From positions 64,001-128,000 of IMG/VR virus record IMGVR_UViG_3300031884_000939: DNA of 64,000 bases, one strand, 5' to 3'. Shown here piece after piece: positions 3,208 through 42,986 of this stretch (position 1 is the stretch's first letter; each line of letters begins with the position of its first letter). The notes under the pieces are model-generated. The model did not search any database. It worked only from the letters and a program-made list of their open reading frames with translations, and was not told the DNA's origin. The stretch is from a virus. The position numbers were made by a program, and so were the translations under genes.

Positions 3208-3258
3208 ATTACTATTATAGTATAATATGAATTGTTTGTCAAGTTAGTGCGTACTAAC

Positions 3259-5323: not shown

Positions 5324-5535
5324 TATACCAACTCTTCAGCAATACCTAATAATTCAGCAAACACCAATAGGTATCCAGCTGACTGAATGTAAGGATTCAT
5401 TTCTAACCAACCACCACCAGCAAGTGCTAGTCCAGCTATAATTCGTAATGCGCTTTTAGCTAAACTAATTCTTAAATGTTTGGCGGCATTTGGATGTTTT
5501 TCTATTTGTGTTGCGTTAGGTCTAGTTAATCCCAT
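5323..5535 (-). CDS. Small membrane protein
   Basis: HLRISLAKSALRI...AELLGIAEELV; two hydrophobic segments. Confidence 0.65.
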   Translation of the reverse strand: MGLTRPNATQIEKHPNAAKHLRISLAKSALRIIAGLALAGGGWLEMNPYIQSAGYLLVFAELLGIAEELV

Positions 5536-5682
5536 ATTATTTTCCTTTAAAAAAATGAAGTATATTATAAAATCTAGTTTTATAATGGGTGAACAGGGGT
5601 TTTAATATTGCTGGATGGTACGGACAGCGTCCTTGCCGATAATCACACTCAGGAGTGTATTCGTGTCCGCAAGTTGAACAAT

Positions 5683-9150: not shown

Positions 9151-10815
9151 TTAGTAATTAAAACTTGCTCTAGGGTAAGTTTGTCCCGTTACGGGCCTTG
9201 GACCTACTACATACCCTGGAAAAACAGGGCCTTGAGTTGATTGGCTAAACAACGCGGCAATAGCTGTTCCAATTGGGCTACCTAATCCAGTACATGCATC
9301 CCAGCCAGGAGTTGCGCTATATCCAGTAGATAAATTAGATGCGTTATCGCCTACAGTTATATCGTTAAATGCTTGGTGATTATTATAAAATAATGTATTC
9401 AATAATCCACCTTGTCTTCCGTAAAGTTGTATTAATCTAGCAATCATGCCAGCATATAATGGACAACAAGCACTGGTTCCACCATACTGACTAAATGTAT
9501 TGCCAGTGCCCCAATAAAATTGATATCCTGTATTTGGATCAGAATTGCCGGCAACATCAGGTACTCCGCGTACTGTTAAAGGAGATACTGTTCCAGCCGG
9601 ATATAATTTTGTTGTTAACCCCACTTGAAACGCTGGCTTGGCGTTATAAACACTTTTGCCACCGCCCGAAGGAGTCCAAGTTACTTCGCTAGTAATTGTA
9701 GTTCCGCTTATTTGAAGTGTTGTTCCGCCGCAACCTAATACATAAGGACTGGACGCTGGAAATAGTACTTCGGGAGACGAACTTGCCCAAGTTGAACCTT
9801 CGTCACCTGATGCTACACATACTGGGATACCAATAACTACTGCTTGAGCTAGTACTGCATTCATAGAAGCTATAGAGCCCGAAGACCAATAAGTTGTTTC
9901 GCCTGCGCCCCAACTTATAGTAAGAACACAAGGGTTATTAACAGTATCGTGTATTGCTGTATTAATTGGGTCGTACCAATCAGGTCCTGGTACAGGACTA
10001 CTATCACCGCCACCATATCCAAAATACATGGCTATTGTAGCATTTGGAGCTACTCCTGCGGCTACATATATATCTAACATAACTTCAGGAGAACCATTTG
10101 TGTCAGCTGGATCATTGGTGCCGCCATCAACTAATATATCTATCATAGTTGGGTTTGGTAATCCTATTCGAGAAAATGTTGAAGTTAAATTTTGTGGTGT
10201 ATAGCCTCCGCCGTATTCTATAATTCCAATACACACTCCAGTACCAGTGGCCGCTGGAAATTTATAAGCGTTTGCTACTTGTATAGGTGTTAATGCTGAA
10301 ATTGCAGCTGGTATTGCTTGATCTGGGGTTACAGGAACTGCCAAAGGACGCATTAATGTAAAATTGTTTAATCCTATTATATATTCTATAACATTTTCTA
10401 ACTGAGTTGGGATAGTTATAGACCCATTATATCCCATATAAGTTCTATCAGGTAATGTTATTAACAATAGTGTTATTCCAAATGCGGCATTAACTTGTTC
10501 AGCGGTTCCTGTTAATTTTACAGTAGCCCCCGGAGCATGACTATCAGTTATTGTTAACCCTGTTGCATTAGCAAAATCAGTAATAAGAGCTAAATCAGAA
10601 TCTGATGCGCTAAATTGATTTGAAAAATCATCGTAAGATAATATTTTACTACGTCCAGCTAATATACTATCGGCATAATCCGTAACAGATTGTGGTCTTC
10701 TGACCATTATACTAAATTTAATTTGTTGAGTGGTGTCTACTGGGGTTGTAGAAACTACAGACGCAGGTGTAGTTACGGTACTTCCTGCTAAAGTAACTAC
10801 AGGAGTTAACTCCAT
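9151..10815 (-). CDS. S53 (sedolisin/kumamolisin) protease with activation prodomain
   Basis: Catalytic EVMLD, SWG, ASGDEG, PASSPYV, RGVPDVA, GGTSA, GWDACTGLGSP. Confidence 0.93.
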   Translation of the reverse strand: MELTPVVTLAGSTVTTPASVVSTTPVDTTQQIKFSIMVRRPQSVTDYADSILAGRSKILSYDDFSNQFSASDSDLALITDFANATGLTITDSHAPGATVKLTGTAEQVNAAFGITLLLITLPDRTYMGYNGSITIPTQLENVIEYIIGLNNFTLMRPLAVPVTPDQAIPAAISALTPIQVANAYKFPAATGTGVCIGIIEYGGGYTPQNLTSTFSRIGLPNPTMIDILVDGGTNDPADTNGSPEVMLDIYVAAGVAPNATIAMYFGYGGGDSSPVPGPDWYDPINTAIHDTVNNPCVLTISWGAGETTYWSSGSIASMNAVLAQAVVIGIPVCVASGDEGSTWASSSPEVLFPASSPYVLGCGGTTLQISGTTITSEVTWTPSGGGKSVYNAKPAFQVGLTTKLYPAGTVSPLTVRGVPDVAGNSDPNTGYQFYWGTGNTFSQYGGTSACCPLYAGMIARLIQLYGRQGGLLNTLFYNNHQAFNDITVGDNASNLSTGYSATPGWDACTGLGSPIGTAIAALFSQSTQGPVFPGYVVGPRPVTGQTYPRASFNY

Positions 10816-10816
10816 A

Positions 10817-12523
10817 TTATCCTTCCATTTTTAACAAGGTTAATGTTACAGACAATGCTGTAGTTGTATTACCATTGTTAACTACTTTCATAGGAATTGC
10901 TACTGTTGGAACTGTTTCATTGTTAAAACCTATTACTGCTGGCGTAAAGTTTACTGTGCCAGCGGCATTACCAATTGCTTCGGCTACTACGCCTGATCCC
11001 GGTGTTGGATCTGTATTAATTGTTCGTGTATAATCAGACACAGCAGCTGCATTTGATGTGTATAATGTAACCCAACTTGCATTGTTAGATGTTATACTAT
11101 AAAGAGCGTACCCTTTATATCCAGTTGCTACAATATTGGCTGCCGCATTAGATGCTAAACTACCTGTAGTAATTGTTACATTAACACGAGAGTTGGTGGT
11201 AGCAACACCTGTTAATTGACTGCCGTTACCATAAAAATAAGTAGCGTTAACATTGCCAGCTGTAACATTACCTGGCAACGACATACCTGATGTAAAGAAT
11301 GTTGCTGATGTTGTACCATTAACTGTTACGGAAATATTATTACTTGGTGTAGGAATATTGATACTACTAGCCCCGGATACAATGTTTGACGATGATGTAG
11401 TGATGCCAGTTAACTGACTACCGTTACCAATAAAATAGTTACCTATGATATTGCCAGAAGCAGCTACAGTATTCAAGTCCAACATACTGCCCGAATAAGT
11501 TGGCAAGAACGCGGCTACTTGGGCATTACCATAGCCACTGCCAGTATTACTATAAGTTAATTCGCCACTAGTAGTATTATAATAAACTGTACTAGTAATA
11601 TTGGAATCATCATTACGCACTGGCTTAACATAAAATCCAGCTAAAGGAGCATCTAATGGTGCCCGGGCGCCATTGAGAGCAATTGAGTTATCAGCTGAAT
11701 TTGGATATCCAGCATACGCACCAATTGCTATTGCGTTGGATCCTTGATTAATGTTTCCTGCTAATGCTCCTATAGCAATAGCTTGATTACCTTGTACATT
11801 AGCACCTGCGCCTAAACCAATAGCAATAGCTTGATTGCCTTGATTGTATTGTCCTGATCCTTGCCCAATAGCTACTGCTTGGATACCTTGATTAAGATTA
11901 CCTGCCGCACGACCATAAGCAATCGCATTAGCACCTTGGTTAGTATATCCTGCTATTTTACCTACAGCAATCGCACCATCACCTTGGCCGTTAGAGCCAG
12001 CGCCAGATCCTATAGCGATTGAGTTATAACCTTGACTGCTGTTGCCGGCAAAATAACCAATAGCTACAGCGTTACCACTTTGAGTAAATTGTCCAGCGGC
12101 GTGTCCAATTGCTACTGAATCACTAGCTTGGCCAGTAAATCCTGCTACACGACCAATACCAACAGCGTATGTTCCTTGTGTATTAGATCCAGCAAAGGAT
12201 CCTATAGCTATGCCATTGGCACTTTGATTTATGCCACCTGCTGTATTACCTATAGCAATAGTATCTATATTTGCTGATTGTCCAGAGTTGCCAGCATTAT
12301 TGCCTAAACTAATACTAGTACTAGTTTGATACAAATAGTTGGTAGTTAATGTAGATGCTACATTTAAATTAGTTAAAGTACCAACAGTTGTAATGTTTGG
12401 CTGTACGGCTTGAGTTACAGTACCAGCCGTATTGGCATAATTAGGAACAGCCGCAAAATTAGCGTCAAGTTCTGCTAAAGGTATTGTGCCAGTTTGATTG
12501 GCAAAGGTATATGGTACAGTCAT
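10817..12523 (-). CDS. Tail fibre with YadA-head-like 14-aa repeats
   Basis: Many (A/S)IAIGxxAGxxxQG repeats; N-terminal IPLAELDANF. Confidence 0.8.
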   Translation of the reverse strand: MTVPYTFANQTGTIPLAELDANFAAVPNYANTAGTVTQAVQPNITTVGTLTNLNVASTLTTNYLYQTSTSISLGNNAGNSGQSANIDTIAIGNTAGGINQSANGIAIGSFAGSNTQGTYAVGIGRVAGFTGQASDSVAIGHAAGQFTQSGNAVAIGYFAGNSSQGYNSIAIGSGAGSNGQGDGAIAVGKIAGYTNQGANAIAYGRAAGNLNQGIQAVAIGQGSGQYNQGNQAIAIGLGAGANVQGNQAIAIGALAGNINQGSNAIAIGAYAGYPNSADNSIALNGARAPLDAPLAGFYVKPVRNDDSNITSTVYYNTTSGELTYSNTGSGYGNAQVAAFLPTYSGSMLDLNTVAASGNIIGNYFIGNGSQLTGITTSSSNIVSGASSINIPTPSNNISVTVNGTTSATFFTSGMSLPGNVTAGNVNATYFYGNGSQLTGVATTNSRVNVTITTGSLASNAAANIVATGYKGYALYSITSNNASWVTLYTSNAAAVSDYTRTINTDPTPGSGVVAEAIGNAAGTVNFTPAVIGFNNETVPTVAIPMKVVNNGNTTTALSVTLTLLKMEG

Positions 12524-12525
12524 TT

Positions 12526-15222
12526 TTATCCTAGAATATTTCGTTTGGGGAACAATAGATATTTATTGTATGCATCGGTATTAGTGTATATGTCAGCAGG
12601 TGCGTTAAATGTAAGGCTTCCGCCGTCAAATTGCGTATCAAAGGTTGTAGTTCCACCGTTGGACCAGTAAACAGTAGTGCCACTGTTATTTTTCCAGCCA
12701 ACAGCTACATTGGTATTATTAACCCATGATGTAGTAGCCGGGACAGTAGCATCTAATCCAGGAACTACAAGTACATTCCAAAAAGCACCGGTTCCAGAGC
12801 CAGTAAGCGTAGTTCCAGAAATTGAAGTATAGTAATTATTAAACGCAAATAAATCTCCAGTACCATAATAGAATACATTTACGATTCCGCCATAACTGTT
12901 TACAGTATCGACAACAATTAATATATCATTCAATGGACTGGTGCCACCGACTTGTGTGCCAGATATTTTAATGTGGTCGCCGCCATAAATGATAGTTCCA
13001 TGAGCATCTCGCTCAACACCACGATACCCAATGCCAGATGACGCAACCGATATATCATAATGATAGTTAATATCAAATGTAGTTGATGTTGGCGGACTTG
13101 GTATCCAGCTTTGAGCATCGGCATCCCAGTTAACTGTTAATGCGCTATCTAATTCATAACGGTCTGCTTCAAAGTCAACTTGATTTAATTGTGTGCCAAA
13201 TTGAGTTTCGATGTTATATTGTATCTGCCCGCTTGCTCCTGGAATCGTATAAGCAATTACCCAAGCAGGTGTGAATCCTAATACTTGTCCGTTAGCTTGT
13301 TTTGACTGCATCCACAACGGTAAAATATTACTTTCTTGGCCTACTACATCAATAACTTGATTACGCATATCTTCCAATGCGTTAGGATATACCACATCAA
13401 CAGTTGGATCAGTAAGTCCATATGGCCATACTACTTCTTTGCTTACACTTACACCTTCATTGTTAACTAAGTTATCTATAATTTCAGAATACACTACTTC
13501 ATATATTACTTGTCCTGTAATAGGATCAACAGCTTGTGCTGTTTTAATTTCACCTAGTGTTAAATTTTTCCAATAGTGATTAAGTTGTAGTGCTTCAACA
13601 TAAGTATCTAAACTAACCGCATCTAAACCATACGCATGATAATATGTTACATTATGGCTTAATCCAAAATTAGGATCATCAGAACGATACAATAATGACG
13701 GAGTAAAGATATTATTATTCTCAAGTAAGTTAGAAATTAATGCTCTATCATTAACTGGAGGCATACATTGGATGTATAAATTTTCATACGGTTTATTGTA
13801 TGTGCGAAGTACATCAATTGTAAATGTTTTATAAACACTAACATAACCATTTATACTATATGCGTTAACCGTAAATGTACAAGTAAGGTCAAAGGTTGTA
13901 GTATTATTATCAAAAGTTGTATTGCCATCGTCAAGAGCAAAAGTATTAAAACTTACACGCCCAACAATATGTCCTGAAGGCAGTAAAGATAATCCTTGTG
14001 GTAATCTTGAATCAGTCCCTGTCGCTAATCTATATTGTAATGGTAATCCAGCTGTGGTAGTCGCCGCAACATAAAAAGTGCTAGTCGAACCGTTACTAAT
14101 GCTTCCTAAGAAGGCAGGAGTTAACCAAGTAACATTAGTTGATATAGGGCCACTAATAGTTAAACTATATTGATAGAATATACTTACAATATCAGGAGAT
14201 GAAACATTATAAACAGCGACACTAAAATTATAAGTTTGTTCAGTTAATCCAAGATTTGGCAAGTATCCAGACAGCCACCCTGTTTCATTATCAAGATATA
14301 GTCCTGGTGGCAAGAAATTGCCTAAGTAACCAATTTGATCTCCTGTAACATTCTTGCCTATAAATTGATAAGCAAAGAAGGTACTGTTAGGTGCTGTACC
14401 AATACTGCCTTGTGGATTTAATAGTACAGGAGCATTAATATTAGATATCGATGCTGTTAAATCAGTATTATCTGCTGTAATAAGTGTAGTGGATGCGTTA
14501 AAGTCTGAAGTACTCCATACAAACATACTAAAAGATCTTACAGCCGAAGTACGGCCGTCTGTTACTTGTAAACTAAATTCATAATTAGTACTTTGCGACT
14601 CTACCCCAAAGTCGAACGGATAAGTTGAAAAGCCTACACCCTTAGCACTATATCCAGGCGCAGCAGAATAAGTTGGATTGAGTTCAAAAAATCCTGATAG
14701 TAATCCAGTTGGACTTAATGTAATGCCAGGAGGTAATGTTCCAGCATATAAAGTAACTGCTGGCGGAATTCCTGTAGTATTGTCGTCTGTATATTCAAGT
14801 TGAAATCCAGGTTCTAATAATTCTCCAACAAAGAATTGTCCAATCTCTCCAGCAGGAGTAATCCAACTTGGAAGATTTTGTCCAGCTACAGTAAGCGTAA
14901 ATGTTCTATCAGCTAATCGGTTGATTACTGTAATACCGCCAATTGTTTTTGTAGTATAAGCGCGAATAGCAAATTTGCTAGTAACATTAACTCCGGCTAC
15001 TATTGCGTCATCTGCTATAGTTACAACATTAGTAGGTACACCTTGAATGATGCCATCTTTTGTACATTCTATTCCAGAAGGTAAACTTCCTGCTATAGCT
15101 TGAAAAAAGACTGGATCGCCACCAGGTTCTTCTACCTGTAGTGGTACTTGGTAAAATGTGCCTTCTGGTACCGTGCCTAAGCTACCGAGCGGGGTAATCC
15201 AAATAGGTTGTACTGACGACAT
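12526..15222 (-). CDS. Baseplate wedge-like protein with Ig-like repeats
   Basis: Repeated PxWITPxGxLG and GxLPxGL Ig modules; EVVYSEIID; C-terminal KYLLFPK. Confidence 0.7.
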   Translation of the reverse strand: MSSVQPIWITPLGSLGTVPEGTFYQVPLQVEEPGGDPVFFQAIAGSLPSGIECTKDGIIQGVPTNVVTIADDAIVAGVNVTSKFAIRAYTTKTIGGITVINRLADRTFTLTVAGQNLPSWITPAGEIGQFFVGELLEPGFQLEYTDDNTTGIPPAVTLYAGTLPPGITLSPTGLLSGFFELNPTYSAAPGYSAKGVGFSTYPFDFGVESQSTNYEFSLQVTDGRTSAVRSFSMFVWSTSDFNASTTLITADNTDLTASISNINAPVLLNPQGSIGTAPNSTFFAYQFIGKNVTGDQIGYLGNFLPPGLYLDNETGWLSGYLPNLGLTEQTYNFSVAVYNVSSPDIVSIFYQYSLTISGPISTNVTWLTPAFLGSISNGSTSTFYVAATTTAGLPLQYRLATGTDSRLPQGLSLLPSGHIVGRVSFNTFALDDGNTTFDNNTTTFDLTCTFTVNAYSINGYVSVYKTFTIDVLRTYNKPYENLYIQCMPPVNDRALISNLLENNNIFTPSLLYRSDDPNFGLSHNVTYYHAYGLDAVSLDTYVEALQLNHYWKNLTLGEIKTAQAVDPITGQVIYEVVYSEIIDNLVNNEGVSVSKEVVWPYGLTDPTVDVVYPNALEDMRNQVIDVVGQESNILPLWMQSKQANGQVLGFTPAWVIAYTIPGASGQIQYNIETQFGTQLNQVDFEADRYELDSALTVNWDADAQSWIPSPPTSTTFDINYHYDISVASSGIGYRGVERDAHGTIIYGGDHIKISGTQVGGTSPLNDILIVVDTVNSYGGIVNVFYYGTGDLFAFNNYYTSISGTTLTGSGTGAFWNVLVVPGLDATVPATTSWVNNTNVAVGWKNNSGTTVYWSNGGTTTFDTQFDGGSLTFNAPADIYTNTDAYNKYLLFPKRNILG

Positions 15223-15233
15223 AAGTTACTCCG

Positions 15234-16388
15234 TTATTGGTAAGCAGCTACAGTCCAGTTTACCCATCCTAATGAACCTGTTGCTGGATTTAATTGATAA
15301 GCCTGAACCTGTTGAGTTTGTGAATTGTAAACCATTTCGCCACCAGTCATGCCACTTAAACTAGCAATTTGACTAGTTGTGTAACTAGGCAATTTAAAGA
15401 AGCCGCCCGGGGCAATAAAGCTACCACTAACTGTATTACCACTTACACTTAAACTTGACAATGTACCAACACTAGTAATATTACCTTGTGCGTTTGTTGT
15501 TACTGTGCCAGATGTTAATGCAGTAGTAGCCAATGCCACTGGGCCAACTACGTTAGTACCAGTAAGAGCAGTAATTTGTGTTCCGTTACCAATCAAGTAA
15601 CTACCAGTAATAGCACCGATAGCACTTACTTGTCCGCCGACAAAAATATTTCCAATATTTAAATTACTACCATATACATTGCCAGTAGCACTTACTTGGC
15701 CGGTTGTTAATACATTACCAGCTGTGATATTCCCTGTGTTATCAAATATAAAACCAGTAACACTTAAACTGCCAGCAAAAATTTCGCCAGCAGCACTAAT
15801 TATTCCAGCACTTAAAACATTACCGCCGTAAATATTACCAGTTGCCGTTAATGATCCAGCACTATTAAGATTGCCGCCGCGGATATTACCAGTAGCACTT
15901 ACTACACCAGCTGTATAAAAGTTAGCGCCAGTAATATTTCCGTTGTCAATTTCAAAACCAGTTACACTTAAATTGCCCGCATATACTGTACCTGCGGAAC
16001 TAATTATTCCACTAGTTAATAAGTTACCAATAGTAGCATTACCAGATACACTAAGACTTGGTAATGTGCCAATAGAAGTAGCTACAATACCTGTTAATGC
16101 GGAGCCATTACCGTTAAGGTAAGCAGCAGTAATATTGCCAGCGACAATAACATTACCTGAAGTAGATACGCCGCCATCAATAATTGTTTGCGGTGTAGAT
16201 ATAGTACCACTAGCACTTAATGATGTTACTGCTAAGTTACCTAAAGTAGAAATACTATTATTGACAAAGTTAGATATGTTAGCCGCAGAAACTTGGTAAG
16301 TTGTCCCGCCCGCAACAACTGGGAATTCAGCTGAGCTAGATAGGTTACCTGGGTAAAGTGGTAATTGGCTAATTTTTATAGTTGACAT
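15234..16388 (-). CDS. Fibre-like structural protein
   Basis: MSTIKISQLP start, SATGNIxGGN repeats, GEMVYNS C-terminal motif. Confidence 0.7.
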   Translation of the reverse strand: MSTIKISQLPLYPGNLSSSAEFPVVAGGTTYQVSAANISNFVNNSISTLGNLAVTSLSASGTISTPQTIIDGGVSTSGNVIVAGNITAAYLNGNGSALTGIVATSIGTLPSLSVSGNATIGNLLTSGIISSAGTVYAGNLSVTGFEIDNGNITGANFYTAGVVSATGNIRGGNLNSAGSLTATGNIYGGNVLSAGIISAAGEIFAGSLSVTGFIFDNTGNITAGNVLTTGQVSATGNVYGSNLNIGNIFVGGQVSAIGAITGSYLIGNGTQITALTGTNVVGPVALATTALTSGTVTTNAQGNITSVGTLSSLSVSGNTVSGSFIAPGGFFKLPSYTTSQIASLSGMTGGEMVYNSQTQQVQAYQLNPATGSLGWVNWTVAAYQ

Positions 16389-16405: not shown

Positions 16406-16552
16406 TTAATTTTCTGTTGTGAGTTCAGCACCGGCTTCGGTGGTTATGATTGTTCCATCTTCAGCAGTGATCTCACTAACTGATTGAACAATGACTATTC
16501 CTAAAGAGATACCTTCTCCTATTGTAATTCCTGGGCCGAATGTTATAGTCAT
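16406..16552 (-). CDS. 48-aa IGxGI-tag micro-protein (putative adaptor)
   Basis: Manual translation MTITFGPGITIGEGISLGIVIVQSVSEITAEDGTIITTEAGAELTTEN; fills the gap between two fibre genes. Confidence 0.7.
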   Translation of the reverse strand: MTITFGPGITIGEGISLGIVIVQSVSEITAEDGTIITTEAGAELTTEN

Positions 16553-16558
16553 AATCTA

Positions 16559-18292
16559 TTAATATCCTGCGGTAAGAGCACTTCTTGCCCAAGTATTTGG
16601 AGCAACACATACATAGATGTAATTGGTATCCCATGCCAACTGACCTACTACCCCAGGTGAACTAGAAGTAGGACTCGATGACGCTGTTAATTGTAAATTA
16701 CCAACAGTAACATTACCACTAGCCGATAATGATACTGTAGCAATTAAATTAGCACCAGCAATATCTCCGCCTGAGCCCGAAGTAGTAAGTGTGTTAGCTG
16801 TTACATTTCCACTTACTGTTAAAGTAGTTAGTGTACCAACGGATGTAATATTTGGTTGTGCGTTTGTCGTTACGGTATTGGCTGTAATTGCTGTGTTAGC
16901 AACAGGAACGGCGCCAGTAAGATTCCCTGCTGGAATGTTAGTTAAGTATAACGCATTACCTATAATGTTGCCGCCAATTATATTACCTTGTGCGCTAACT
17001 GTTCCTAATACAATAAATGTATTGGAATCTTTGTTGTATGTCATGCCGCCGGTAGCATCAGCGTTACCGTTAGTATTGAAAATAACTTGTGTATTGGCTC
17101 CTGGCACAACAAAGTTACCAGTAACATTACCTTGGAAAGTTCCAATGAATACACCATCGGTAACAATATTACCAGTAGCAGATACAACACCTTGAGCTAA
17201 AACATTGCCAGTAGTAGAAATTGCGCCTTGCGATAAAACATTACCAGTAGTAATAATATCAGTAGTAACATTACCGCTTGACAGTAATGCTGTTACATTA
17301 GCATTAGTATATGACGTTGGCAATCCACTTAATTGTGATCCATTGCCAATGATATAATTACCGTAGACATTGCCAGTAGCTGTTACAGTAATAGCACTAA
17401 TAACATTAGCGCCTGAAATATTTCCTGCGCCTACATTGCCTGTTGTTTGAATACCCACAGCAACAACTTGATTCGCTTCTACATTAGCTGCTCCATTACC
17501 TAATATGCCTCCATAAGTTGGCAAGAATGTTGCTACATTAGCATTAGTATAAGAAGATGGAATGCCAGTTAACTGACTACCATCACCCAAGTAAGTAGTT
17601 GCTGTTACTGTGCCATTGACCACAACATTATTAACTGCGCCACTACTTAAGAAAGATTGTACATTAGAATTACCATAGTTACCAGCGCCACCGCTAATAC
17701 CTGTTAAGTAATATCCATTACCAACAAAGTATCCGCTAGTACTTGTAATGTTGCCAGTAGCAATAATAGATGCTACATTTTGCATTGATCCAGAATAAGT
17801 TACAAGATACGAGCTTACATTAGAATTACCGTAGTTTCCAGCAAACGGTACGCCATTAGCATATTGGTAAGTGTTAGTTTTAACTATGCCAGCAGTTACA
17901 TTTCCAGGAACAGTTACGCCAGTAGAAGTAAATGTTGCCACATTAGCAACACCAGACACTCCAACAGTAACATTTGCGTTAGCCGAAGCAATGGATACAT
18001 TAGATGTACCATATCCAATAGCATTACCAGAGATATTATTAACTTGTGGGACTTTGCCCCAAATTATAGTACTGCCGTCATAAGTGCCAAAACAATAGTA
18101 AAAGAATGATGAGCTATAGGCATACATTCCAGCAACATCGCCAACTTTACCTACTAATGTAGCTGGCGGTTGTGGGTTTGGGAGAGCAAATAATTGTTCA
18201 AAATTGCTGTTTGTAGTAATAAACGCGGTGCGTATAGGATCGCCCATGCCATCATTTGGCGCTGATCCTACATTAATAATTTCCTGAGACAT
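16559..18292 (-). CDS. Baseplate-attached fibre (T4 gp9/gp10-like N-terminus)
   Basis: INVGSAPNDGMGDPIRTAF...NF; C-terminal GVVGQLAWDTNYIYVCVAPNTW; TAAATA at 18315-18320. Confidence 0.8.
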   Translation of the reverse strand: MSQEIINVGSAPNDGMGDPIRTAFITTNSNFEQLFALPNPQPPATLVGKVGDVAGMYAYSSSFFYYCFGTYDGSTIIWGKVPQVNNISGNAIGYGTSNVSIASANANVTVGVSGVANVATFTSTGVTVPGNVTAGIVKTNTYQYANGVPFAGNYGNSNVSSYLVTYSGSMQNVASIIATGNITSTSGYFVGNGYYLTGISGGAGNYGNSNVQSFLSSGAVNNVVVNGTVTATTYLGDGSQLTGIPSSYTNANVATFLPTYGGILGNGAANVEANQVVAVGIQTTGNVGAGNISGANVISAITVTATGNVYGNYIIGNGSQLSGLPTSYTNANVTALLSSGNVTTDIITTGNVLSQGAISTTGNVLAQGVVSATGNIVTDGVFIGTFQGNVTGNFVVPGANTQVIFNTNGNADATGGMTYNKDSNTFIVLGTVSAQGNIIGGNIIGNALYLTNIPAGNLTGAVPVANTAITANTVTTNAQPNITSVGTLTTLTVSGNVTANTLTTSGSGGDIAGANLIATVSLSASGNVTVGNLQLTASSSPTSSSPGVVGQLAWDTNYIYVCVAPNTWARSALTAGY

Positions 18293-34664: not shown

Positions 34665-36761
34665 ATGTCCCAAATTATTATTAACACCGGAAATATTGCC
34701 AATGATGGCACTGGTGACCCGCTACGTACCGCATTTAATGATGTAAATAACAATTTTACACAGGTTTTTAGTGCCGGCCCGGTAGGTAGTAACATAGCAA
34801 TCGCTAACAATACTATCCAAACTACCAATACAAATGGTAATTTAATCCTTGCTACAAATGGTGTAGGAGTTGTTGTTCCGGCGGCTAATTTTGTTCCAGA
34901 TAGACCAAACACTCGTTCTATTGGTACTTCAGCAGACCGTTTTTCTACAGTTTACGCCCAATATCTTAATGCCAATTCAGGTACATTTAGTGGTAACATT
35001 TATGCTGGAAATATGCATTTTACTGGCAATGTTGTTACAGTTAACTACTCTACAGCAAATATTGGAAACCTTAATCTTACATTAGCGGCCAACGCTTCTA
35101 ATGCCGCATTAGCTAATGGCGCTGGTATTATAGTTGCTAATGCCAATGCTAACTTAATTTATAATTACAGTTCTAATTCTTGGGATAGCTCAATTGCTAT
35201 TACAGCCCCAACCTTTATTGGCGATGGCGCAAATTTAACCAATGTTGTTGCTAATGTTAATGCTATTAATTTATTAGGCAACACATTAAGTTCATCTGTT
35301 GTATATTCAAATTTAACTAGTTTTGGAAGTGTAACTAGTTTATCAGCTATAGGTGATATATCAACTACAGGTAATGTTTATGCTAACGCAATCGTTGGCA
35401 ATACTATCTTTGGTGCTCTTAATGGCGACGGTAGTAACATTACTAATATTACGGCTAATGCTATTGTAGGTAATGTTCCATTTGCTCTTAATGCTAACTC
35501 AGCTTATACAGCTAACTTAGCAGCACTAGCCACACAAGCTATCAATGCCGACACAGCATTGTTTGCCATTAATGCTAACTTAGCAGCATTTTCTAATGTA
35601 GCAACTTCAGCACAAACAGCTAACAGTTCTCATTACTCTATTCAATCAGACAATGCTAACTCTGCTGTTGTAGCAGGTATGGCTTATGAATTATCTCCTA
35701 GTGCTAATGTGTCCTTAACTGGAAACATTCAAGTTGGAGGCATTTTAACTAACGGTTATTACTATGCTAACGGTACACCATTTACTGGTGCTACTAGTAA
35801 TGTTTCTAATTTAGTTAATGGCAATGCTATTTTTAGTTTAACATCAGATGGCGTGTTAAATCTTCCAGTAGGGCATAGTTATTCATACAATGCTACCCTT
35901 ACTGGCTATGGCAGCAACACAGCCCAAATACATTTTAATTTAGTTTGCGATCAATCAGGCACACAAACTGAATGGCAAGCAGGAATTACCAATCCAGGTA
36001 ACGGATATTCTGTAGGCCAAACATTTACATACGATTCTACATTCATAGGAATACCTAACGCATCTGTTAGTATCGAAGTCGCAAGTGTAAACGGATCTGG
36101 CGGAGTTACTAATTTAGCATTTACACAACCTCCATTATATCCACCTAGCTTTTATCAATCAAATTCATTTATAGCGTTAGAAGCTAATACACAGCGTTGG
36201 ACTTTTGGATTAAATGGCAACTTAACATTGCCGGCCACTATAACTGGCTTGGCTACTGCTGTCACACTTAACGCTGGCCTCACAGTAGGCTACTCCACAG
36301 CGGCCAACGTGCCAACCATTGCTGACACAGGTACAGGCACAGGCCTAACTGTTGACATCATAGCCGATAGTGGCAACGCTGGTTCAATTACTAGTGTCAC
36401 CCTTAATCAGCGTGGCCAAGGCTATGCGCCGGGTGATCAGTTAACTATTAATCAGCCCAGCAGTACTGGCAACGGTGAGTTAACTGTTGTGGCAGTCGAG
36501 ACTGTCAATCCTAGCATTAACTATGCTAACGGTCAACCATATGGTGGTAGTGGTAACTTTACAGGTAATATTAATGCTGTTAATGTTACAGCTACCGGTA
36601 ATGTTAGTGCTGGCAATTTATATATTGGTAACACACTTTTTACAAGAACACTTTTAGTAGGAACATGGACTGCCCCAGTTACTGTGCCGCTAGCAAGTAA
36701 TAATAGTTTTAATGTTTTAACTGCTAATGGCAGTTCTAACATCGTGGTATATACAACTTAA
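34665..36761 (+). CDS. Tail fibre (gp9/gp10-like N-terminus)
   Basis: INTGNIANDGTGDPLRTAFNDVNNNF; alanine coil; G.GY..G beta repeats. Confidence 0.8.
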   Translation: MSQIIINTGNIANDGTGDPLRTAFNDVNNNFTQVFSAGPVGSNIAIANNTIQTTNTNGNLILATNGVGVVVPAANFVPDRPNTRSIGTSADRFSTVYAQYLNANSGTFSGNIYAGNMHFTGNVVTVNYSTANIGNLNLTLAANASNAALANGAGIIVANANANLIYNYSSNSWDSSIAITAPTFIGDGANLTNVVANVNAINLLGNTLSSSVVYSNLTSFGSVTSLSAIGDISTTGNVYANAIVGNTIFGALNGDGSNITNITANAIVGNVPFALNANSAYTANLAALATQAINADTALFAINANLAAFSNVATSAQTANSSHYSIQSDNANSAVVAGMAYELSPSANVSLTGNIQVGGILTNGYYYANGTPFTGATSNVSNLVNGNAIFSLTSDGVLNLPVGHSYSYNATLTGYGSNTAQIHFNLVCDQSGTQTEWQAGITNPGNGYSVGQTFTYDSTFIGIPNASVSIEVASVNGSGGVTNLAFTQPPLYPPSFYQSNSFIALEANTQRWTFGLNGNLTLPATITGLATAVTLNAGLTVGYSTAANVPTIADTGTGTGLTVDIIADSGNAGSITSVTLNQRGQGYAPGDQLTINQPSSTGNGELTVVAVETVNPSINYANGQPYGGSGNFTGNINAVNVTATGNVSAGNLYIGNTLFTRTLLVGTWTAPVTVPLASNNSFNVLTANGSSNIVVYTT

Positions 36762-36781
36762 TTCACTAGGAAATAATAGCA

Positions 36782-39700
36782 ATGGCAAACCAAATCCCAT
36801 TAATCGTAAATGCTGGCGCAGGTCAGATACAACAATTAGCAACAGAGGATAATCTTTCTGTTACTGCTAATGTTGTTACAGGTAATATTTTAGCAGGTGG
36901 CTACTTTTACGCAAACGGACAACCGTTTAGTGGCGGCGGCAATGCTACTCCAGGCGGCAGCAACACACAAGTTCAGTTTAATCTTGATGGCGCATTTGCT
37001 GGCGACTCTAGCTTTACATATGATAGTGCTAATGCCGCTAATGGCTTAATACTACAATCATCATTTGTAGCCAACCCAGGCGCTAGTATTTTAGAAGTAC
37101 ACGGGTTAAGCGCATATATGGGCGAAGTAGCCGGAGGTGGTATTGAGGTTAATGCTGCTACTCACACAACTACTATTAGTACTCCTGCTACAAATATTAC
37201 CGGCGATGTATCTGCCGCAGGCAATATTACTGGCAATTTTATTATTGGAGATGGTTCTCAGTTAACTAATCTTCCGTCAAGTACTCCTACAAATATTCAA
37301 TATGGCACAACTACAGTGGCTATTGACGCTCCAAGTGGTAATGTTTATATTCAAGTAGATGACAATCCAATTTGGACATTTAATTCTGATGCCACACTTA
37401 CTGCTCCTGGCACAATAATTGCTCAAGAATTAAATGCTGGCGACTACACATATGGAACTTCTGGCGATGCGTTTTTCCATTCTAATATTAGTGGAACTAG
37501 TATAGGCGTTACTGGTGGTGGTGGCATTGCCGTTGATGGTGGCGGCATCAGTATTGGTGGCACAGGCGGAGCAAACATTTTTGGTATTGCTAATGCTAAC
37601 ATTATTATTGGTGGTCCTTATACACAATCCGTTAATGTATTAACTCCTATCAATGCTACTAATAGTATCACAGCTACAAATTTTTATGGTACTGATATTT
37701 CAGCTTCGGGTAATATTACTAGTGATGGCAAAGTTATTACAGTAGCTAGCAACTTATCAGATGGCGCAGTATCTGGTGCTGGATTAATTGCTGGAGCAAA
37801 TACTGCTACTATTCTTTATGACAATAGCGTGTTTGGTTGGACAGTAAATCAAGGTTGGCACCCAGCGGCTAATGCAACATATAACTTAGGTCGTCCAACT
37901 CGTTATTGGAATAATCTTTATTCAGTTAATGTTACAGCTGATAACATGGATATTGTCGACGGGCTTGCTAGTAATTCTATTACTTCTGGATCATTCTTAT
38001 TAGCTAATGCGGGCAATTCAACTACTAGTATAATTCAACAAAATCAAAATCCTCCATTAGGTTCAGAGGCATTTGGTATTGAGTTATTAACCACTGCTAA
38101 TGATAACCCTGGTGTTTACAGTAGTGTTTCTGCTGGGCCAGACTATGTTTCATTACAAAGTAGTAATGCTGGTAATGCTAATGTAACATTACAAGGTGGA
38201 TATGGTATTACACTTAATACAAGTAATGCTACAGGCGGTGGACAACAAACTTGGACCTTTACAGAAGGCGGTCAATTCCTTGCTGCCGGAGATGTTAGCA
38301 CAACAGGTAATGTATTAGCTCAAGGAGTAGTTTCTGCTACTGGCAATATTATTACTGACGGATACTTTGTTGGTAACTTTGCTGGTAACATTACAGGTAA
38401 TATTGTTGTTCCTGGTTCAAATACACAAGTATTGTTTAACACAAACGGTAATGTTGATGCTGTTGGTGGATTAACTTATAACAAAGATTCAAACACATTA
38501 ACAATTTTAGGTGTTGTAAGTGCTCAAGGCGATGTATTTGGAGCTACTATTAATGGCAATGGTGCTAACTTAACTAGCTTGTATAGTACTGTTGATGTCA
38601 TTGCTCTTGGTAGAAATGCTGGCGGCGGCTCTTATGCTAATTCCATATCAATTGGTGTTGGTTCAGGTGACCAAGGAGCAAACTCAGTAGCAGTTGGTCC
38701 TTACAGTGGCGCTAATGCTCAAGGCAGTTATAGTGTAGCAATTGGTCGTAGCGCAGCTTATTCAGCTCAAGGAAATATTGCTATTGCTATTGGTCGCGGC
38801 GCTGGATGGGGCAACCAAAGTGACGAAGCGATTTCGATTGGTTATGGAGCAGGTAATTCAACACAAGGGTACCAAGCTATTTCCATTGGTTCAAATGCGG
38901 GTGCTAATTCACAAACTGATAACGCTATATCAATTGGTTCAGCGGCTGGTTTTGAAACACAAGGCGAATTTTCAATTGGTATTGGACATATAGCAGGCGG
39001 ATATTTCCAAGGACCACAAGCTATTGCGATTGGTTTATCAGCAGGTAATACTACGCAAGGCGCAAATGCTATAGCGTTAGGATGGATAGCTGGTAATATT
39101 AACCAAGGCAGTGATGGCATTGCTATTGGTACTAACGCTGGTAACAGTAATCAAGGCGTTGGAGCTGTTGCTATCGGCCGCTGGGCAGGCAATGGTAATC
39201 AAGGTATTAACTCTGTAGCACTTGGCCGCAATGCTGGTAATGTTAGTCAAGGTATAGAAGCTGTAGCTGTTGGTCATAGTGCTGGTAATACTACACAAGG
39301 TAATGCGGCAGTAGCCGTTGGTTGGCAAGCAGGTTATATCAGTCAAGCTGATTATTCTGTAGCGATTGGCGCTTATGCTGGTAACCTTAACATGGGTGCT
39401 AACGCTGTAGCCATTGGATCCTTTGCTGGATATCCAAATTCAGCTAATAACTCTATTGCTATTAACGGCAATCCAACTCCATTAGATGCGCCTAACGCAG
39501 GCTTTTATGTAGCTCCAGTTCGCAATGACACAGGTAATGTAACTAATGTCGTTTATTACAATACTTTAACTAATGAAGTTACATATGGTCCAACAACCAT
39601 TGGTAGCTCAATTGTTAATGGTAATAGTAATGTTTCTATTAGTACTGCTGGTGGCAACATCGACCTCAATGTAAATGGAAATCCATTTGGTAGTTTAGGA

Positions 39701-40504
39701 TTTGGTGTTGCTTTAGGATACAATGCTGGCGGATCAGGAAATACAGCATTCCAAGAATCAGGCATTGCTATTGGTACGAGTGCTGGTAATACTAGCCAAG
39801 GCATACATAGTATTGCTATTGGTTGGAATACTGGTGAATATCTACAAGGTAATAGTGCCGTAGCTATTGGAGAAAACGCTGGTTACGCACAACAGGGCGA
39901 TTTTGCTATTGCCATTGGGGCAGTAGCTGGTCGTGCGTTACAAGGTGCTAATGCTATTGCTTTCGGTACTCGAGCTGGATTAGAAGGCCAAGGAGCTTAT
40001 GCTATTGCTATTGGTGCCGAGGCTGCTTCAAATAATCAACCTGTTAATAGTATTGCTATCGTAGCATCTGGTGTTGACCCAGTGCCAACTAACTCAGGAT
40101 TGTATATTGATCCAGTTCGCAATGACACAGGCAATGTAACTAACGCTGTTTACTATAATACAACAACTAAAGAAGTTACATATGGCCCAGCGGGTGGCGG
40201 ATCTAGTGTGGCCGAAGCGGCATTTACTATCCAATCATCTGACTTTAATGCGGTAGTTGGCAATAGATATGGAGTAGACACTACTAGTAATCCAGTAACA
40301 GCCACATTAACTGCGTTTCCTATAACAGGAACTGCTGTGTTCTTTGCTGATGCAGGCGGAGCATTTGCCACAAATAATTTAACAATTAACCCAGTAGGGC
40401 GAACCATTATGGGTTCAAGTGGCAACTATGTTGTTAATACTAACAATAATAGTTTTGGCTTGTTCTGGAATGGAACAACATGGCGCACATATAGTAATGT
40501 TTAA
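36782..40504 (+). CDS. Long tail fibre with two YadA-head-like repeat blocks
   Basis: Many AIAIGxxAGxxxQG repeats; PGGSNTQVQFN; T4 gp34-like C-terminal module (YGVDTTSNPVTATL...FATNNLTI). Confidence 0.85.
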   Translation: MANQIPLIVNAGAGQIQQLATEDNLSVTANVVTGNILAGGYFYANGQPFSGGGNATPGGSNTQVQFNLDGAFAGDSSFTYDSANAANGLILQSSFVANPGASILEVHGLSAYMGEVAGGGIEVNAATHTTTISTPATNITGDVSAAGNITGNFIIGDGSQLTNLPSSTPTNIQYGTTTVAIDAPSGNVYIQVDDNPIWTFNSDATLTAPGTIIAQELNAGDYTYGTSGDAFFHSNISGTSIGVTGGGGIAVDGGGISIGGTGGANIFGIANANIIIGGPYTQSVNVLTPINATNSITATNFYGTDISASGNITSDGKVITVASNLSDGAVSGAGLIAGANTATILYDNSVFGWTVNQGWHPAANATYNLGRPTRYWNNLYSVNVTADNMDIVDGLASNSITSGSFLLANAGNSTTSIIQQNQNPPLGSEAFGIELLTTANDNPGVYSSVSAGPDYVSLQSSNAGNANVTLQGGYGITLNTSNATGGGQQTWTFTEGGQFLAAGDVSTTGNVLAQGVVSATGNIITDGYFVGNFAGNITGNIVVPGSNTQVLFNTNGNVDAVGGLTYNKDSNTLTILGVVSAQGDVFGATINGNGANLTSLYSTVDVIALGRNAGGGSYANSISIGVGSGDQGANSVAVGPYSGANAQGSYSVAIGRSAAYSAQGNIAIAIGRGAGWGNQSDEAISIGYGAGNSTQGYQAISIGSNAGANSQTDNAISIGSAAGFETQGEFSIGIGHIAGGYFQGPQAIAIGLSAGNTTQGANAIALGWIAGNINQGSDGIAIGTNAGNSNQGVGAVAIGRWAGNGNQGINSVALGRNAGNVSQGIEAVAVGHSAGNTTQGNAAVAVGWQAGYISQADYSVAIGAYAGNLNMGANAVAIGSFAGYPNSANNSIAINGNPTPLDAPNAGFYVAPVRNDTGNVTNVVYYNTLTNEVTYGPTTIGSSIVNGNSNVSISTAGGNIDLNVNGNPFGSLGFGVALGYNAGGSGNTAFQESGIAIGTSAGNTSQGIHSIAIGWNTGEYLQGNSAVAIGENAGYAQQGDFAIAIGAVAGRALQGANAIAFGTRAGLEGQGAYAIAIGAEAASNNQPVNSIAIVASGVDPVPTNSGLYIDPVRNDTGNVTNAVYYNTTTKEVTYGPAGGGSSVAEAAFTIQSSDFNAVVGNRYGVDTTSNPVTATLTAFPITGTAVFFADAGGAFATNNLTINPVGRTIMGSSGNYVVNTNNNSFGLFWNGTTWRTYSNV

Positions 40505-40529
40505 TAAATATACAAAAGGAAATTAAATC

Positions 40530-40937
40530 ATGGTAGCACCATTACAAATCGGACCAGGAATTAACATAGGACCAGGAATTAACATAGGAGCAGGAGCAGC
40601 TCCTATTACAGGCGGAACAATCACTTATCTTGAAATGAATCCGCCAGTTATCCCAGGGAACCAATTAGAAGATACTACTGCTACAGTTAACGGATCAGTT
40701 GGCTTTACTATTAACGATCTTACTAAAACAGGAGTAGCAGTATCTAACCTTACACCATCTAATAATACATTCTTTAGTAATCAAGGCACGGGATATTTTG
40801 CTGCTTCATTTGGGCCAGGAAGTACTCATGCTACAGCTATAGTACAAATAGTAAATGTCAGTGGCGGCTTAGTATTCTACATTGACCATACCATAGGTTA
40901 TCCAGCAACATTTAACTATCCATTTGTGATAGCATAA
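40530..40937 (+). CDS. IGxGI-tag virion-associated protein
   Basis: MVAPLQIGPGINIGPGINIGAG followed by a beta domain. Confidence 0.7.
   Translation: MVAPLQIGPGINIGPGINIGAGAAPITGGTITYLEMNPPVIPGNQLEDTTATVNGSVGFTINDLTKTGVAVSNLTPSNNTFFSNQGTGYFAASFGPGSTHATAIVQIVNVSGGLVFYIDHTIGYPATFNYPFVIA
40551..40586 (+). repeat. Exact 18-nt tandem duplication in the tag
   Basis: GGACCAGGAATTAACATA x2. Confidence 0.9.
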
Positions 40938-40949
40938 GGAAAATAAATC

Positions 40950-41039
40950 ATGTATACAACAGCAAATCCAAAACCCGGCGACCCAGGCTTCTGGGAGTGG
41001 CATAGAACTAACAACCCACCAACATTTCCAAAACCTTAA
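40950..41039 (+). CDS. 29-aa Pro-rich peptide
   Basis: MYTTANPKPGDPGFWEWHRTNNPPTFPKP; AAGGA RBS; fills the gap. Confidence 0.5.
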   Translation: MYTTANPKPGDPGFWEWHRTNNPPTFPKP

Positions 41040-41048
41040 GGACAAATT

Positions 41049-41684
41049 ATGTCACAACCATTTACAATAGGCGGCGGTATCGAAATAGGCGGTGGCATTA
41101 GTGTTGGGCAACCTTCAACTCCCCCAGGCCCTACGGTAACAGGAGTTAATCCTAATTTTGGATATGCCAACGGCAATACTTATGTTGAAGTGTATGGTAC
41201 TTTATTAGATACAGTTACATCGTGCTCAATTGGTGGTATTGTTCAAACTCAATTTGTATGTTTTGGTAATCCTACCTTGGCTTATATATTTCAAACAGAA
41301 CCAGGAGTTGCTGGCACTGGATTAAGTGTAGAAGTTACCAATCCAGATGGAACAAGTGTTCCAAATACATTGTGGACTTGCTTACCTGCAGTACCTTTCC
41401 CAACAGTTACTTCGATTAGCCCTAATAACGGACCTGCGGCCGGCGGAACACCAGTAACTATCACTGGATCAGGATTTACAGCAGGAGACGATTATAATAC
41501 CTATCCTCAGTTTGGGGATCTGCTTGGGTCATGCAGTTTAGCCAATGTTACTATAGATTCAACGACGCAGATATCCGGAATCACTAATCCATTTCCACCA
41601 GGTGTATATAATGTACTGGTTACGACTCCGGCTACTGGTCCAGCTAATCCAGCTACATTAACCAATGGTTGGACTTATACTTAA
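41049..41684 (+). CDS. IGxGI-tag protein with two IPT/TIG domains
   Basis: IGGGIEIGGGISVG; PTVTGVNPNFG and PTVTSISPNNGPAAGGTPVTITGSGF. Confidence 0.8.
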   Translation: MSQPFTIGGGIEIGGGISVGQPSTPPGPTVTGVNPNFGYANGNTYVEVYGTLLDTVTSCSIGGIVQTQFVCFGNPTLAYIFQTEPGVAGTGLSVEVTNPDGTSVPNTLWTCLPAVPFPTVTSISPNNGPAAGGTPVTITGSGFTAGDDYNTYPQFGDLLGSCSLANVTIDSTTQISGITNPFPPGVYNVLVTTPATGPANPATLTNGWTYT

Positions 41685-41696
41685 CATCCGCATTAA

Positions 41697-41735
41697 TATG
41701 CCCGCTGGCACGGTTCCAACTGTAAAAAATCCTAG
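41697..41735 (+). pseudogene. 3' remnant of a homing endonuclease
   Basis: YARWHGSNCKKS* mirrors the RWH..C termini of the endonucleases at 22073 and 29809. Confidence 0.6.
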
Positions 41736-41757
41736 GCCATTAACTACCCACTAAATA

Positions 41758-41861
41758 ATATTAGCAACATACACTCGTGACTTAGTTGAGTATAAAATTA
41801 AGCTGGTGGGTCGGTAAACTCGGTAATAATAAAACCAAAAAGCACCTTACGGTGCTTTTTT
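41758..41861 (+). ncRNA. Candidate small pseudoknot RNA
   Basis: Lies between TAAATA (41752) and a terminator; no ORF; ACUC/GAGU stem with loop CUUAGU pairing to downstream AUUAAG. Confidence 0.4.
41837..41861 (+). terminator. Intrinsic terminator
   Basis: AAAAAGCACC-TTAC-GGTGCTTTTTT. Confidence 0.88.
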
Positions 41862-41912
41862 GTTGACTTTTAACTTTAGCTAAATACATTATAAGTTTAA
41901 AGGATAACAATC

Positions 41913-42986
41913 ATGGTAGCACCATTACAAATTGGCGGTGGAATTAATATAGGCGGTGGAATTAGTGTTGGCCCAGCGGGCCCAGGACCTGCGACTATCC
42001 CAATCTTAGATATAACAGGACATACATTTGGCCAACCATTTGCTGACGTTACATTTGACATAACCAGTGATGGCGGCAGTCCTATAATTGAAGCCGGAGT
42101 CATCTGGGGATTGCCCGGGCAGACAACTTATGCTATCAGCGTAGATAGTTGTGTGACAACTAGCACTACTTCAGAAAGAAAAGCTGTACGAAGCGGCGAC
42201 GATTGTGGAAATCCAATACTTACTGGAATTACCGGATCACAAACAGTTGGCTTTAACGCTAGTGAATTTCTATATGAATCTATCAATGCAGTCGCTTATG
42301 CTATCAATTCAGTAGGTATATCATATAGTCCCACAGTACTAACTTGGGTTCCTACTATTTGTTTAGCTGAAGGAACATTGATCACATTAGCAGATGAAAG
42401 TACAAAACCCATTGAAAATATTCTAATGTCAGACGTGATTCGAGTTTGGGATTTTGATAAAGGTGTATTTGCTTCAGCCAAACCGTTATGGATCAAACAA
42501 AAAGAAACAACTATGCGGTATAACTTACTAACATTTAGTGATGGAACAACACTTAAAACTATTGAACAGCACAGAATTTTTAATAAGGAAGCTGGAGCAT
42601 TTACTTACCCAATGACTGATGATACTCCTATTGGCACTACAACTATTAATGTATTGGGCAATGAGATTACATTAGTTGATAAGTGTGTTATGATTGACAC
42701 AGTTAATTACTACAATGTAATTACAGAACACTACCTAAACTTATATGCTGACGGCATTTTAACCAGTATGCGTTATAACAACATCTATCCTATTGTTAAT
42801 ATGAAGTTTGTCAAAGACTCTCGTCAACTGCGTAAGCGTAACGAGTTTGTTGGTATAGACCAGCGTTGGATTGATGGGTTGCGATTAACAGAGCAAACAA
42901 TACCATTAGCAGCTATTAAACGATACACACAGCGACTAGAGTACACAGACGCTAATCAGCAGATAATAAAGGAAACAATATCATGA
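41913..42986 (+). CDS. IGxGI-tag + FN3-like + Hint-domain protein
   Basis: IGGGINIGGGISVG; ITSDGGSPI...AYAINSVG; Hint CLAEGTLITLAD (Cys at 42360), TIEQHRIF, YYNV...LYADGILTS. Confidence 0.8.
   Translation: MVAPLQIGGGINIGGGISVGPAGPGPATIPILDITGHTFGQPFADVTFDITSDGGSPIIEAGVIWGLPGQTTYAISVDSCVTTSTTSERKAVRSGDDCGNPILTGITGSQTVGFNASEFLYESINAVAYAINSVGISYSPTVLTWVPTICLAEGTLITLADESTKPIENILMSDVIRVWDFDKGVFASAKPLWIKQKETTMRYNLLTFSDGTTLKTIEQHRIFNKEAGAFTYPMTDDTPIGTTTINVLGNEITLVDKCVMIDTVNYYNVITEHYLNLYADGILTSMRYNNIYPIVNMKFVKDSRQLRKRNEFVGIDQRWIDGLRLTEQTIPLAAIKRYTQRLEYTDANQQIIKETIS

Follow-up and report, generated by a model that had tools for sequence, protein, structure and literature searches.

A peptide of 15 residues, referred to below as the tag, was found at the very start of otherwise unrelated viral proteins. 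The tag consists of three hydrophobic-x-hydrophobic strands joined by two GxG turns and is followed by a linker and a cargo domain. It was studied in a 64,000-nucleotide stretch of viral DNA (the window), which covers positions 64001-128000 of the 158,513-base IMG/VR virus contig IMGVR_UViG_3300031884_000939, with a CheckV completeness of 45%. In this contig the tag is confined to protein starts, among the matches listed by two large scans it is essentially restricted to viral contigs, and four genes of the window carry it. Its most likely role, to which about even chances are given, is that of a tether that complements a beta-sheet of some structural protein of the virion and so holds a monomeric domain of the lectin or adhesin type there.

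Anatomy and constraint of the N-terminal tag

Six-frame searches that covered both the window and the entire contig with the strict motif G.G[IVL].[IVL]G.G[IVL] returned only four real open reading frames (ORFs), and in all four the motif begins 2-7 residues past the start codon. A looser three-strand definition selected the same four among 982 ORFs of the contig, with no match in 3,452 internal control windows. The first-pass annotation of this DNA had named the same four ORFs, and all of them proved to exist, with the motif nowhere else in the contig's ORFs. Three lie side by side on the plus strand. Gene 1 (40530..40937 in the ORF list, 135 amino acids, aa) has the strands LQI, INI and INI (residues 5-19, nt 40542-40586), followed by a Gly/Ala/Pro linker, gene 2 (41049..41684, 211 aa) has the strands FTI, IEI and ISV (nt 41061-41105), and gene 3 (41913..42986, 357 aa) has LQI, INI and ISV (nt 41925-41969). 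The fourth is a micro-gene of the minus strand (16406..16552, 48 aa), whose tag reads ITF, ITI and ISL (nt 16502-16546).

The anatomy of the tag was determined on the 84 distinct tagged proteins among the matches listed by the scan of viral contigs described below. Exactly three strands are present in 69 of the 84 tags, and the centre residue of every strand is polar (T, N, S, E or K). Past the third strand there is no conservation, and a variable linker of Pro, Gly, Ala and Ser follows. The element had been described earlier as a tag with a six-residue period; the motif is indeed shared, but the fixed number of strands speaks against an open-ended hexad repeat. The initiator Met is itself the first hydrophobic residue in 31 of the 84 tags. 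None of these 31 has a small residue at position 2, where only I, N, L, D, E and Q occur, whereas a small residue occupies this strand position in 23 of 49 tags that have a longer leader (Fisher p 1e-6). The N-terminal Met is retained on a protein when residue 2 is not small. Given the consistent lack of small residues behind a Met1 that doubles as the first hydrophobic residue, Met1 should stay on these proteins, and this pattern would point to a protein-level importance of the first strand and of the extreme N-terminus. The bias at residue 2 thus fits selection for Met retention.

Nearly all of about 55 orthologues of gene 3 (58-95% identity) have the N-terminal tag, and nearly all of the 37 representatives of the gene 1 family have a hexad-type N-terminus. 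The residues of the tag drift among the orthologues of both genes (35-95% identity), giving for example IEGGI, ITGGT or GPGW, and pentad variants such as MNIQGINIQG occur as well. Therefore, the tag is conserved as a pattern and not as a sequence. At the nucleotide level, the starts of genes 40530 and 41913 are surrounded by 24 identical nt (40526-40549 and 41909-41932), and the tag of gene 40530 contains an exact tandem duplication of 18 nt (40551-40568 and 40569-40586), both as previously noted. The recent copying of tags that had been proposed from these identities is possible for the MVAPLQI leader, but this leader is old and common to several cargo families in other phages.

In AlphaFold monomer models based on the family alignments, the tag is without secondary structure in both gene 3 (pLDDT ~50) and gene 1 (pLDDT 64-70) and is therefore not packed on its own cargo. 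As far as these models can tell, the tag probably needs a partner. The earlier statement that no description of the peptide was known holds for all sources consulted. The tag profile had no match among PDB sequences at E 10, eight tag segments matched no family in a Pfam hmmscan up to E 10, searches of Pfam, PHROGs and NCBIfam with tags and whole proteins gave no family for the tag, and no description was found in the literature searched.

Occurrence in viral and prokaryotic sequences

A first scan of IMG/VR with an IUPAC pattern returned mostly IGIGIG microsatellites, and the pattern was then refined. The refined scan gave at least 110 ORF matches, at least 92 of them within 10 residues of the start codon, and at least 84 distinct proteins. 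The contigs that bear the tag are often 130-364 kb long, two of them are complete, and each contains one to three strict tags. Applied to 596 Gb of prokaryote genomes, a scan ten-fold larger than the viral one, the same pattern matched low-complexity repeats, membrane segments and out-of-frame stretches. There was no convincing protein-start tag among the 120 prokaryote stretches listed, one match at a contig end being undecidable. In control phage DNA of 1.06 Mb, chosen by other selection, 6 of 7,606 ORFs fitted the loose definition, and five of these six belong to the family of micro-proteins discussed below.

In proteins from metagenome-assembled genomes (MAGs) of Acidobacteriota and related bacteria (L216, L249, L268, L324, L334), G-D-G-I-[LV]-I hexads form long internal arrays close to the C-terminus. 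Here a repeat of similar type is put to another use, in cells.

Cargo of the tagged proteins

The cargo was classified with Pfam in 67 full-length tagged proteins from the listed matches of the viral scan. Laminin_G_3 (LamG) was found in 31 of them and Gly_rich_2 (PF21722), which is absent from the window's own three genes, in nine; TIG, PA14/GLEYA, DUF285, fibrinogen-C, PKD and a trans-sialidase C-terminal lectin domain were found once each. All cargo domains found are extracellular binding modules and none is an enzyme, and the tagged proteins, as read from their sequences, are without signal peptides or membrane segments. Judged by its domains, the tagged cargo is overwhelmingly adhesin- or lectin-like. 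The first-pass annotation had recommended a scan of viral contigs as a way to catalogue the cargo and had regarded the tag as a portable N-terminal module on unrelated cargo; the scan did yield such a catalogue, mostly of adhesin- and lectin-type proteins, and the census together with the viral-only distribution bears that view out.

The three plus-strand genes of the window differ in cargo. In gene 2, a Pro-rich linker leads to two IPT/TIG domains, recognised by Pfam as two TIG stretches (E 2.3e-15). The cargo of gene 1 (residues 30-135) is predicted by AlphaFold, with a pLDDT of 96-98, to be a compact alpha/beta domain. This domain had no Foldseek match at E<=0.001, its best VIA score (Z 5.2, to a phage tail chain) is too weak to name a fold, and a search of the ESM Atlas gave only unnamed viral clusters with chance-level scores. 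The model of gene 3 (AlphaFold, alignment of 57 sequences, pLDDT 86) comprises an Ig/FN3-like sandwich (residues 30-145, nt 42000-42347), a Hint domain of the bacterial intein-like (BIL) type (residues 149-300, nt 42357-42812) and a helical C-terminal extension (residues 309-356, nt 42837-42980). The best Foldseek matches of the Hint domain are the bacterial intein-like domains 6y75 (BIL2; E 7e-10, TM 0.82 on target) and 2lwy. The conserved N-terminal nucleophile expected of a Hint fold is present in the modelled domain as Cys150, which is invariant in the 57 sequences.

The Ig-like, BIL-type Hint and helical parts of gene 3 (42357-42980 on the plus strand of the window; L173:1111-3729 on the minus strand) represent a widespread C-terminal cassette with 981 homologues. 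It is found on tail fibres, in fusions with LamG, glycine-rich and collagen parts, and in Tat-signal proteins of Chloroflexi MAGs. The cassette may be a self-removing or self-ligating end of fibres, working on a principle like that of the chaperone domains with which tail spikes end. A separate observation concerns the tagged glycine-rich genes, which at five loci (L096, L150, L159, L169 and L188) are directly preceded by a gene for a protein of ~122 aa (phrog_7759, start MAHFAKLDENN); this protein may be a chaperone or partner.

Links to tail fibres and the micro-protein

The same cargo domains occur fused to fibre proteins. On L173, a tail fibre of 872 aa closes with the Ig, Hint and extension parts, which are 60% identical to residues 128-356 of gene 3, and a tagged homologue of gene 1 comes after this fibre. 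S-PM2 p176, whose annotation is virion structural protein, has LamG cargo as its C-terminal domain, and this cargo is likewise C-terminal in proteins of the baseplate or fibre region of S-SKS1 and S-8S29. Thus, relatives link the domain to the fibre covalently, whereas phages with the tag encode tag and domain as a separate gene. Synechococcus phage S-SKS1 (L335) also has, at 2736-5630, two adjacent paralogues that end in LamG and have in common the N-terminal motif N-G-G-x-I-G ... F-T-G-T-K-S-D-D-P-N-Y-S, which may be another type of leader.

Sixty tagged loci were collected, 46 of which could be classed by a recognisable neighbour. A structural or late context was found for 37 of the 46, including fibre modules (15 loci), the gap between a gp15 homologue and the terminase (nine loci) and the neighbourhood of the major head protein (two loci). 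These and the other positions of the classed loci, named below, are variable slots of T4-like genomes. In pelagimyophages, a cluster for host recognition has been described in which concanavalin-type and YadA-type proteins occur together with glycosyltransferases (PMC7029224), and this arrangement agrees with the surroundings of the tagged genes. The gp15 (tail-sheath-stabiliser) homologues lying directly upstream of tagged genes (L086, L106, L138, L162, L200) are ~335 aa long, and their C-terminal ~115 aa extend beyond the PHROG match; this part could be a docking site located at the neck. YadA-like fibres (hydrophobic-x-hydrophobic-G-x-x-A-G-x-x-x-Q-G) adjoin tagged genes at four loci (the window, L094, L148 and L135), and the inner strand A-I-A-I-G of their repeat resembles the I-x-I-G of the tag.

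The micro-gene of the window belongs to a family of 12 members with products of 46-53 aa, in which three acidic hydrophobic-[IV]-[TS]-E motifs come after the tag. Each of the 12 micro-genes is placed 0-30 nt upstream of a fibre gene starting with M-x-x-[IV]-K-[IF]-[ST]-[QD]-L, and these pairs occur in varied surroundings: in fibre operons, beside the major head protein and beside the endolysin. In the window, the partner is a fibre gene starting MSTIKISQLP (15234..16388, minus strand, 384 aa), 17 nt downstream of the micro-gene. On the other side, the stop codon of a fibre gene for 577 aa (16559..18292, minus strand) is only 7 nt ahead of the micro-gene start, which places the micro-gene inside a fibre operon. 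A scan for fibre starts that did not select for the tag showed, among the matches listed, a micro-gene upstream of all seven KF[ST]QLP fibres and of one KISQLP fibre, and the other 101 KISQLP fibres were without it. Therefore, the micro-protein depends on the fibre, whereas the fibre does not depend on the micro-protein. In P0232, the acidic module stands between the tag and a gene-1 cargo, which shows the acidic part to be a module following the tag. A search of a set of 5.8 billion proteins with the micro-protein matched only the micro-protein itself. As a fibre start, M-[AS]-N-[IV]-K-I-S-Q-L-P occurs very often on viral contigs (at least 109 ORFs, L340-L456) and looks like another widespread type of N-terminal anchor.

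Genome context in the window

A block of holin, endolysin, spanin and DnaJ genes lies directly ahead of the window. Along with the T4-type neighbours that surround related genes on other contigs, this block agrees with a giant T4-like phage. The three tagged genes close a block of the plus strand that is headed by two fibre genes, for 698 aa and 1240 aa (34665..40504). The 1240-aa fibre (36782-40504) has YadA-like 16-residue repeats and PHROG matches to tail protein and tail spike, and neither a Pfam family nor a T4gp10-like domain was detected in the two fibres. The fibres at 34665 (34665-36761) and 16559 have the common start N-x-G-x-x-x-N-D-G-x-G-D-P-[LI]-R-T-A-F. Further fibre genes of the window lie at 9151-10815, 10817-12523 and 12526-15222.

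Two candidate boxes resembling T4 late promoters were noted on the plus strand, AATAAATA at 40504-40511 upstream of gene 40530 and CTAAATA at 41880-41886 upstream of gene 41913. A terminator-like hairpin with a T run was read from the sequence at 41838-41862 (plus strand). The region 41750-41862 of the same strand, just ahead of the candidate promoter of 41913, holds a CTAAATAA box, which is followed by ~100 nt free of ORFs and by this strong terminator. Between tagged genes 1 and 2, at 40950-41039 (plus strand), a Pro-rich ORF of 29 aa was found, MYTTANPKPGDPGFWEWHRTNNPPTFPKP. Its ribosome-binding site and spacer nearly match those of gene 40530 (AAGGAAAATAAATCATG vs AAGGAAATTAAATCATG).

Discussion

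Docking by strand complementation is favoured because the tag is unfolded alone, is located at a free N-terminus, is beta-patterned with one hydrophobic face and replaces a covalent link to the fibre. The tag would be a mini beta-module of 15 residues which, without a fold of its own, docks onto a partner by lending its strands to it. The docking site would most probably be a trimeric tail fibre or another three-fold site, and the tag would stand in for the covalent link found in the fibres of relatives that end with the same C-terminal domains. The 48-aa micro-protein would then be an adaptor without cargo, tying the K[IF][ST]QLP subfamily of fibres to the same docking system. The attachment of tagged proteins to the particle, proposed in the first-pass annotation, receives indirect support from the fused fibre forms and from the pairing of micro-gene and fibre gene.

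Several results weigh against this docking reading. No tagged protein has been seen in a particle so far, and no conserved C-terminal 'socket' domain was found in the proteins encoded beside tagged genes, although a carrier might lie at some other place in the genome. The complete tagged genome G001 has no recognisable pair of micro-gene and fibre, so that the adaptor cannot be universal. The cyanophages, the Flavobacterium phage and the five jumbo phages examined gave no cultured phage that bears the tag. By major capsid protein, those five (PA5oct, Serratia BF, Yersinia fHe-Yen9-04, Vibrio 2.275.O and Sinorhizobium Phosso), in all of which the tag is absent, are the closest relatives in culture of contig L177, which has the tag. 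A tblastn search of cultured phages with the tag alone gave nothing, the tag probably being masked by the low-complexity filter, and a search with the cargo gave LamG on cyanophage fibres and untagged LamG in Flavobacterium phage immuto, with no tag. Moreover, 11 of the 46 classed loci fall into the gap between holin and endolysin, that is, into the lysis cassette, 10 of the 46 lie beside primase/helicase genes, and the late-promoter motif TAAATA is not enriched, being present upstream of 15% of tagged and 18% of other genes.

These last three results would speak for tagged proteins that act inside the infected cell or on its surface, at lysis or following release, perhaps as binders of glycans of the envelope, with the tag directing them to a component of the host or of the lysis system. 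Such a role outside the virion is judged improbable. The tagged proteins have no signal peptides or membrane segments, homologous cargo is found within the fibre proteins of other phages, and the slots in question are typical variable regions of T4-like genomes that hold varied genes (PMC7029224). A somewhat better, but still low, chance is given to self-association, in which three chains would intertwine through their tags into a short triple beta-helix or prism, a mini foldon that makes the lectin domains trivalent, either free or on the particle. The core of a beta-helix could well be built from the alternating Ile residues and the Gly turns of the tag, the disorder of the tag in the monomer model is compatible with such an assembly, and many phage receptor-binding proteins are trimers. 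A trimerisation repeat needs no fixed count, yet three strands prevail among the listed tags as described above; in addition, the glycine-rich adhesins of the gp38 type are monomers (PMC12032242), and the pairing of micro-protein and fibre would be left unexplained.

The suggestion of a polymerising peptide, made in the first-pass annotation as an alternative to docking, found no support. Its amyloid-like version, in which the tags would co-polymerise into a beta-solenoid fibre displaying mixed cargo, possibly with the help of the phage's curli-type secretion genes, is considered very unlikely. The motif is short, terminal, beta-prone and common to neighbouring genes, and the phage encodes CsgG; against this, each protein has a single unit of fixed length and, lacking a Sec signal, could not reach CsgG. 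A link to the phage curli pore was rejected on the basis of G001, which bears the tag and is without CsgG. The least probable of the explanations considered, and a distant one, is that the tag serves as an address for packaging into the capsid or the tail lumen, similarly to the capsid-targeting sequence of T4. The N-terminal position and the portability of the tag would suit this role, but the conserved (L/I)-x-E site of the head protease, which ends the N-terminal peptide in T4, does not follow the tags, where the positions are variable (G, D, T, S). The cargo consists of lectin and adhesin domains and not of enzymes or DNA-binding proteins, and the fused forms sit on fibres.

A more specific form of the docking reading was also considered, namely that the tag is a single three-sided beta-rung by which a monomeric adhesin caps the end of a trimeric fibre, the micro-proteins of 46-53 aa being a universal adaptor for a widespread type of fibre. 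One tag would give one strand to each subunit of the trimeric fibre end. This capping arrangement is suggested by the strict count of three strands and by the three acidic motifs of the micro-protein, and it is regarded as speculative and rather unlikely. If true, it would mean that a 1:3 symmetry mismatch is solved by a peptide and not by a folded domain, and that uncultured giant phages of aquatic habitats make use of a modular, peptide-based plug system.

Exchangeable receptor-binding proteins that dock by a short N-terminal peptide are known already, from RBP2 of the KP32 type and from gp38 adhesins. In podophages of Klebsiella, namely KP32, K11 and KP34, the N-terminal peptide of RBP2 binds the branching domain of RBP1 (PMC6872550, PMC13352976). 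The likeness consists in a short conserved peptide at the start of exchangeable host-recognition proteins, which places separate heads on one carrier. However, the sequence of the RBP2 peptide is unrelated to the tag, and that system belongs to small podoviruses, whose depolymerase spikes are trimeric and whose T4gp10-like socket is known, whereas the tag is found in giant T4-like myoviruses on small lectin-type domains. In Straboviridae of the T2/T6/S16 type, gp38 is a separate monomeric adhesin on the tip of the trimeric long tail fibre, to which it is attached by its N-terminal part (PMC12032242, PMC3157838). Its binding domain is glycine-rich (polyglycine-II), nine of the 67 tagged proteins contain a glycine-rich domain, PF21722, that may be related to it, and the seating of monomeric gp38 on trimeric gp37 (PMC12032242) resembles the capping arrangement. 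In contrast to the tag, with its 15 residues and a linker, gp38 attaches by a folded N-terminal domain, and it is one gene at one locus directly after gp37, whereas the tag is borne by many unrelated domains at many loci.

The six-residue period hydrophobic-x-[ILV]-G-x-x is also reminiscent of the Hexapep left-handed beta-helix, three hexads of which make one coil, but the tag would form at most one coil and not many tandem hexads, pentad variants exist, and Hexapep PF00132 matched neither tags (E up to 10) nor whole proteins. PAAR-repeat proteins are reported (Shneider et al. 2013) to cap the triple-stranded beta-helix of VgrG/gp5 spikes and to carry varied extension domains. There, too, a small unit with three-fold internal repetition seats a monomer on the end of a trimeric beta-helix; PAAR, however, has no sequence relation to the tag, folds into a domain of ~90 residues and contains a zinc site, and its motif domain PF05488 had no match in Pfam scans of tags or whole proteins. 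The amyloid signalling motifs of HET-s and the bacterial BASS pair the C-terminus of an effector with the N-terminus of an adjacent NLR-type protein, whereas the tag copies are all N-terminal, on lectin-type cargo and, among the matches listed, only on viral contigs. Nothing was found in the databases or literature searched on this particular peptide, on its build from three strands, on its distribution across more than 80 proteins from giant uncultured phages or on the micro-protein that is its partner.

How giant T4-like phages in lakes and oceans recognise their hosts has hardly been studied, because few of these phages have been cultured. If the tag is indeed a plug, tagged genes in metagenomes would reveal the exchangeable host-binding repertoire of these viruses, and the tag itself would offer a natural handle of very small size by which foreign domains could be attached to such particles. 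Moreover, testable predictions on how a monomer may be fixed to a trimeric fibre follow from the three-strand build, from the requirement for the extreme N-terminus and from the pairing with a micro-protein.

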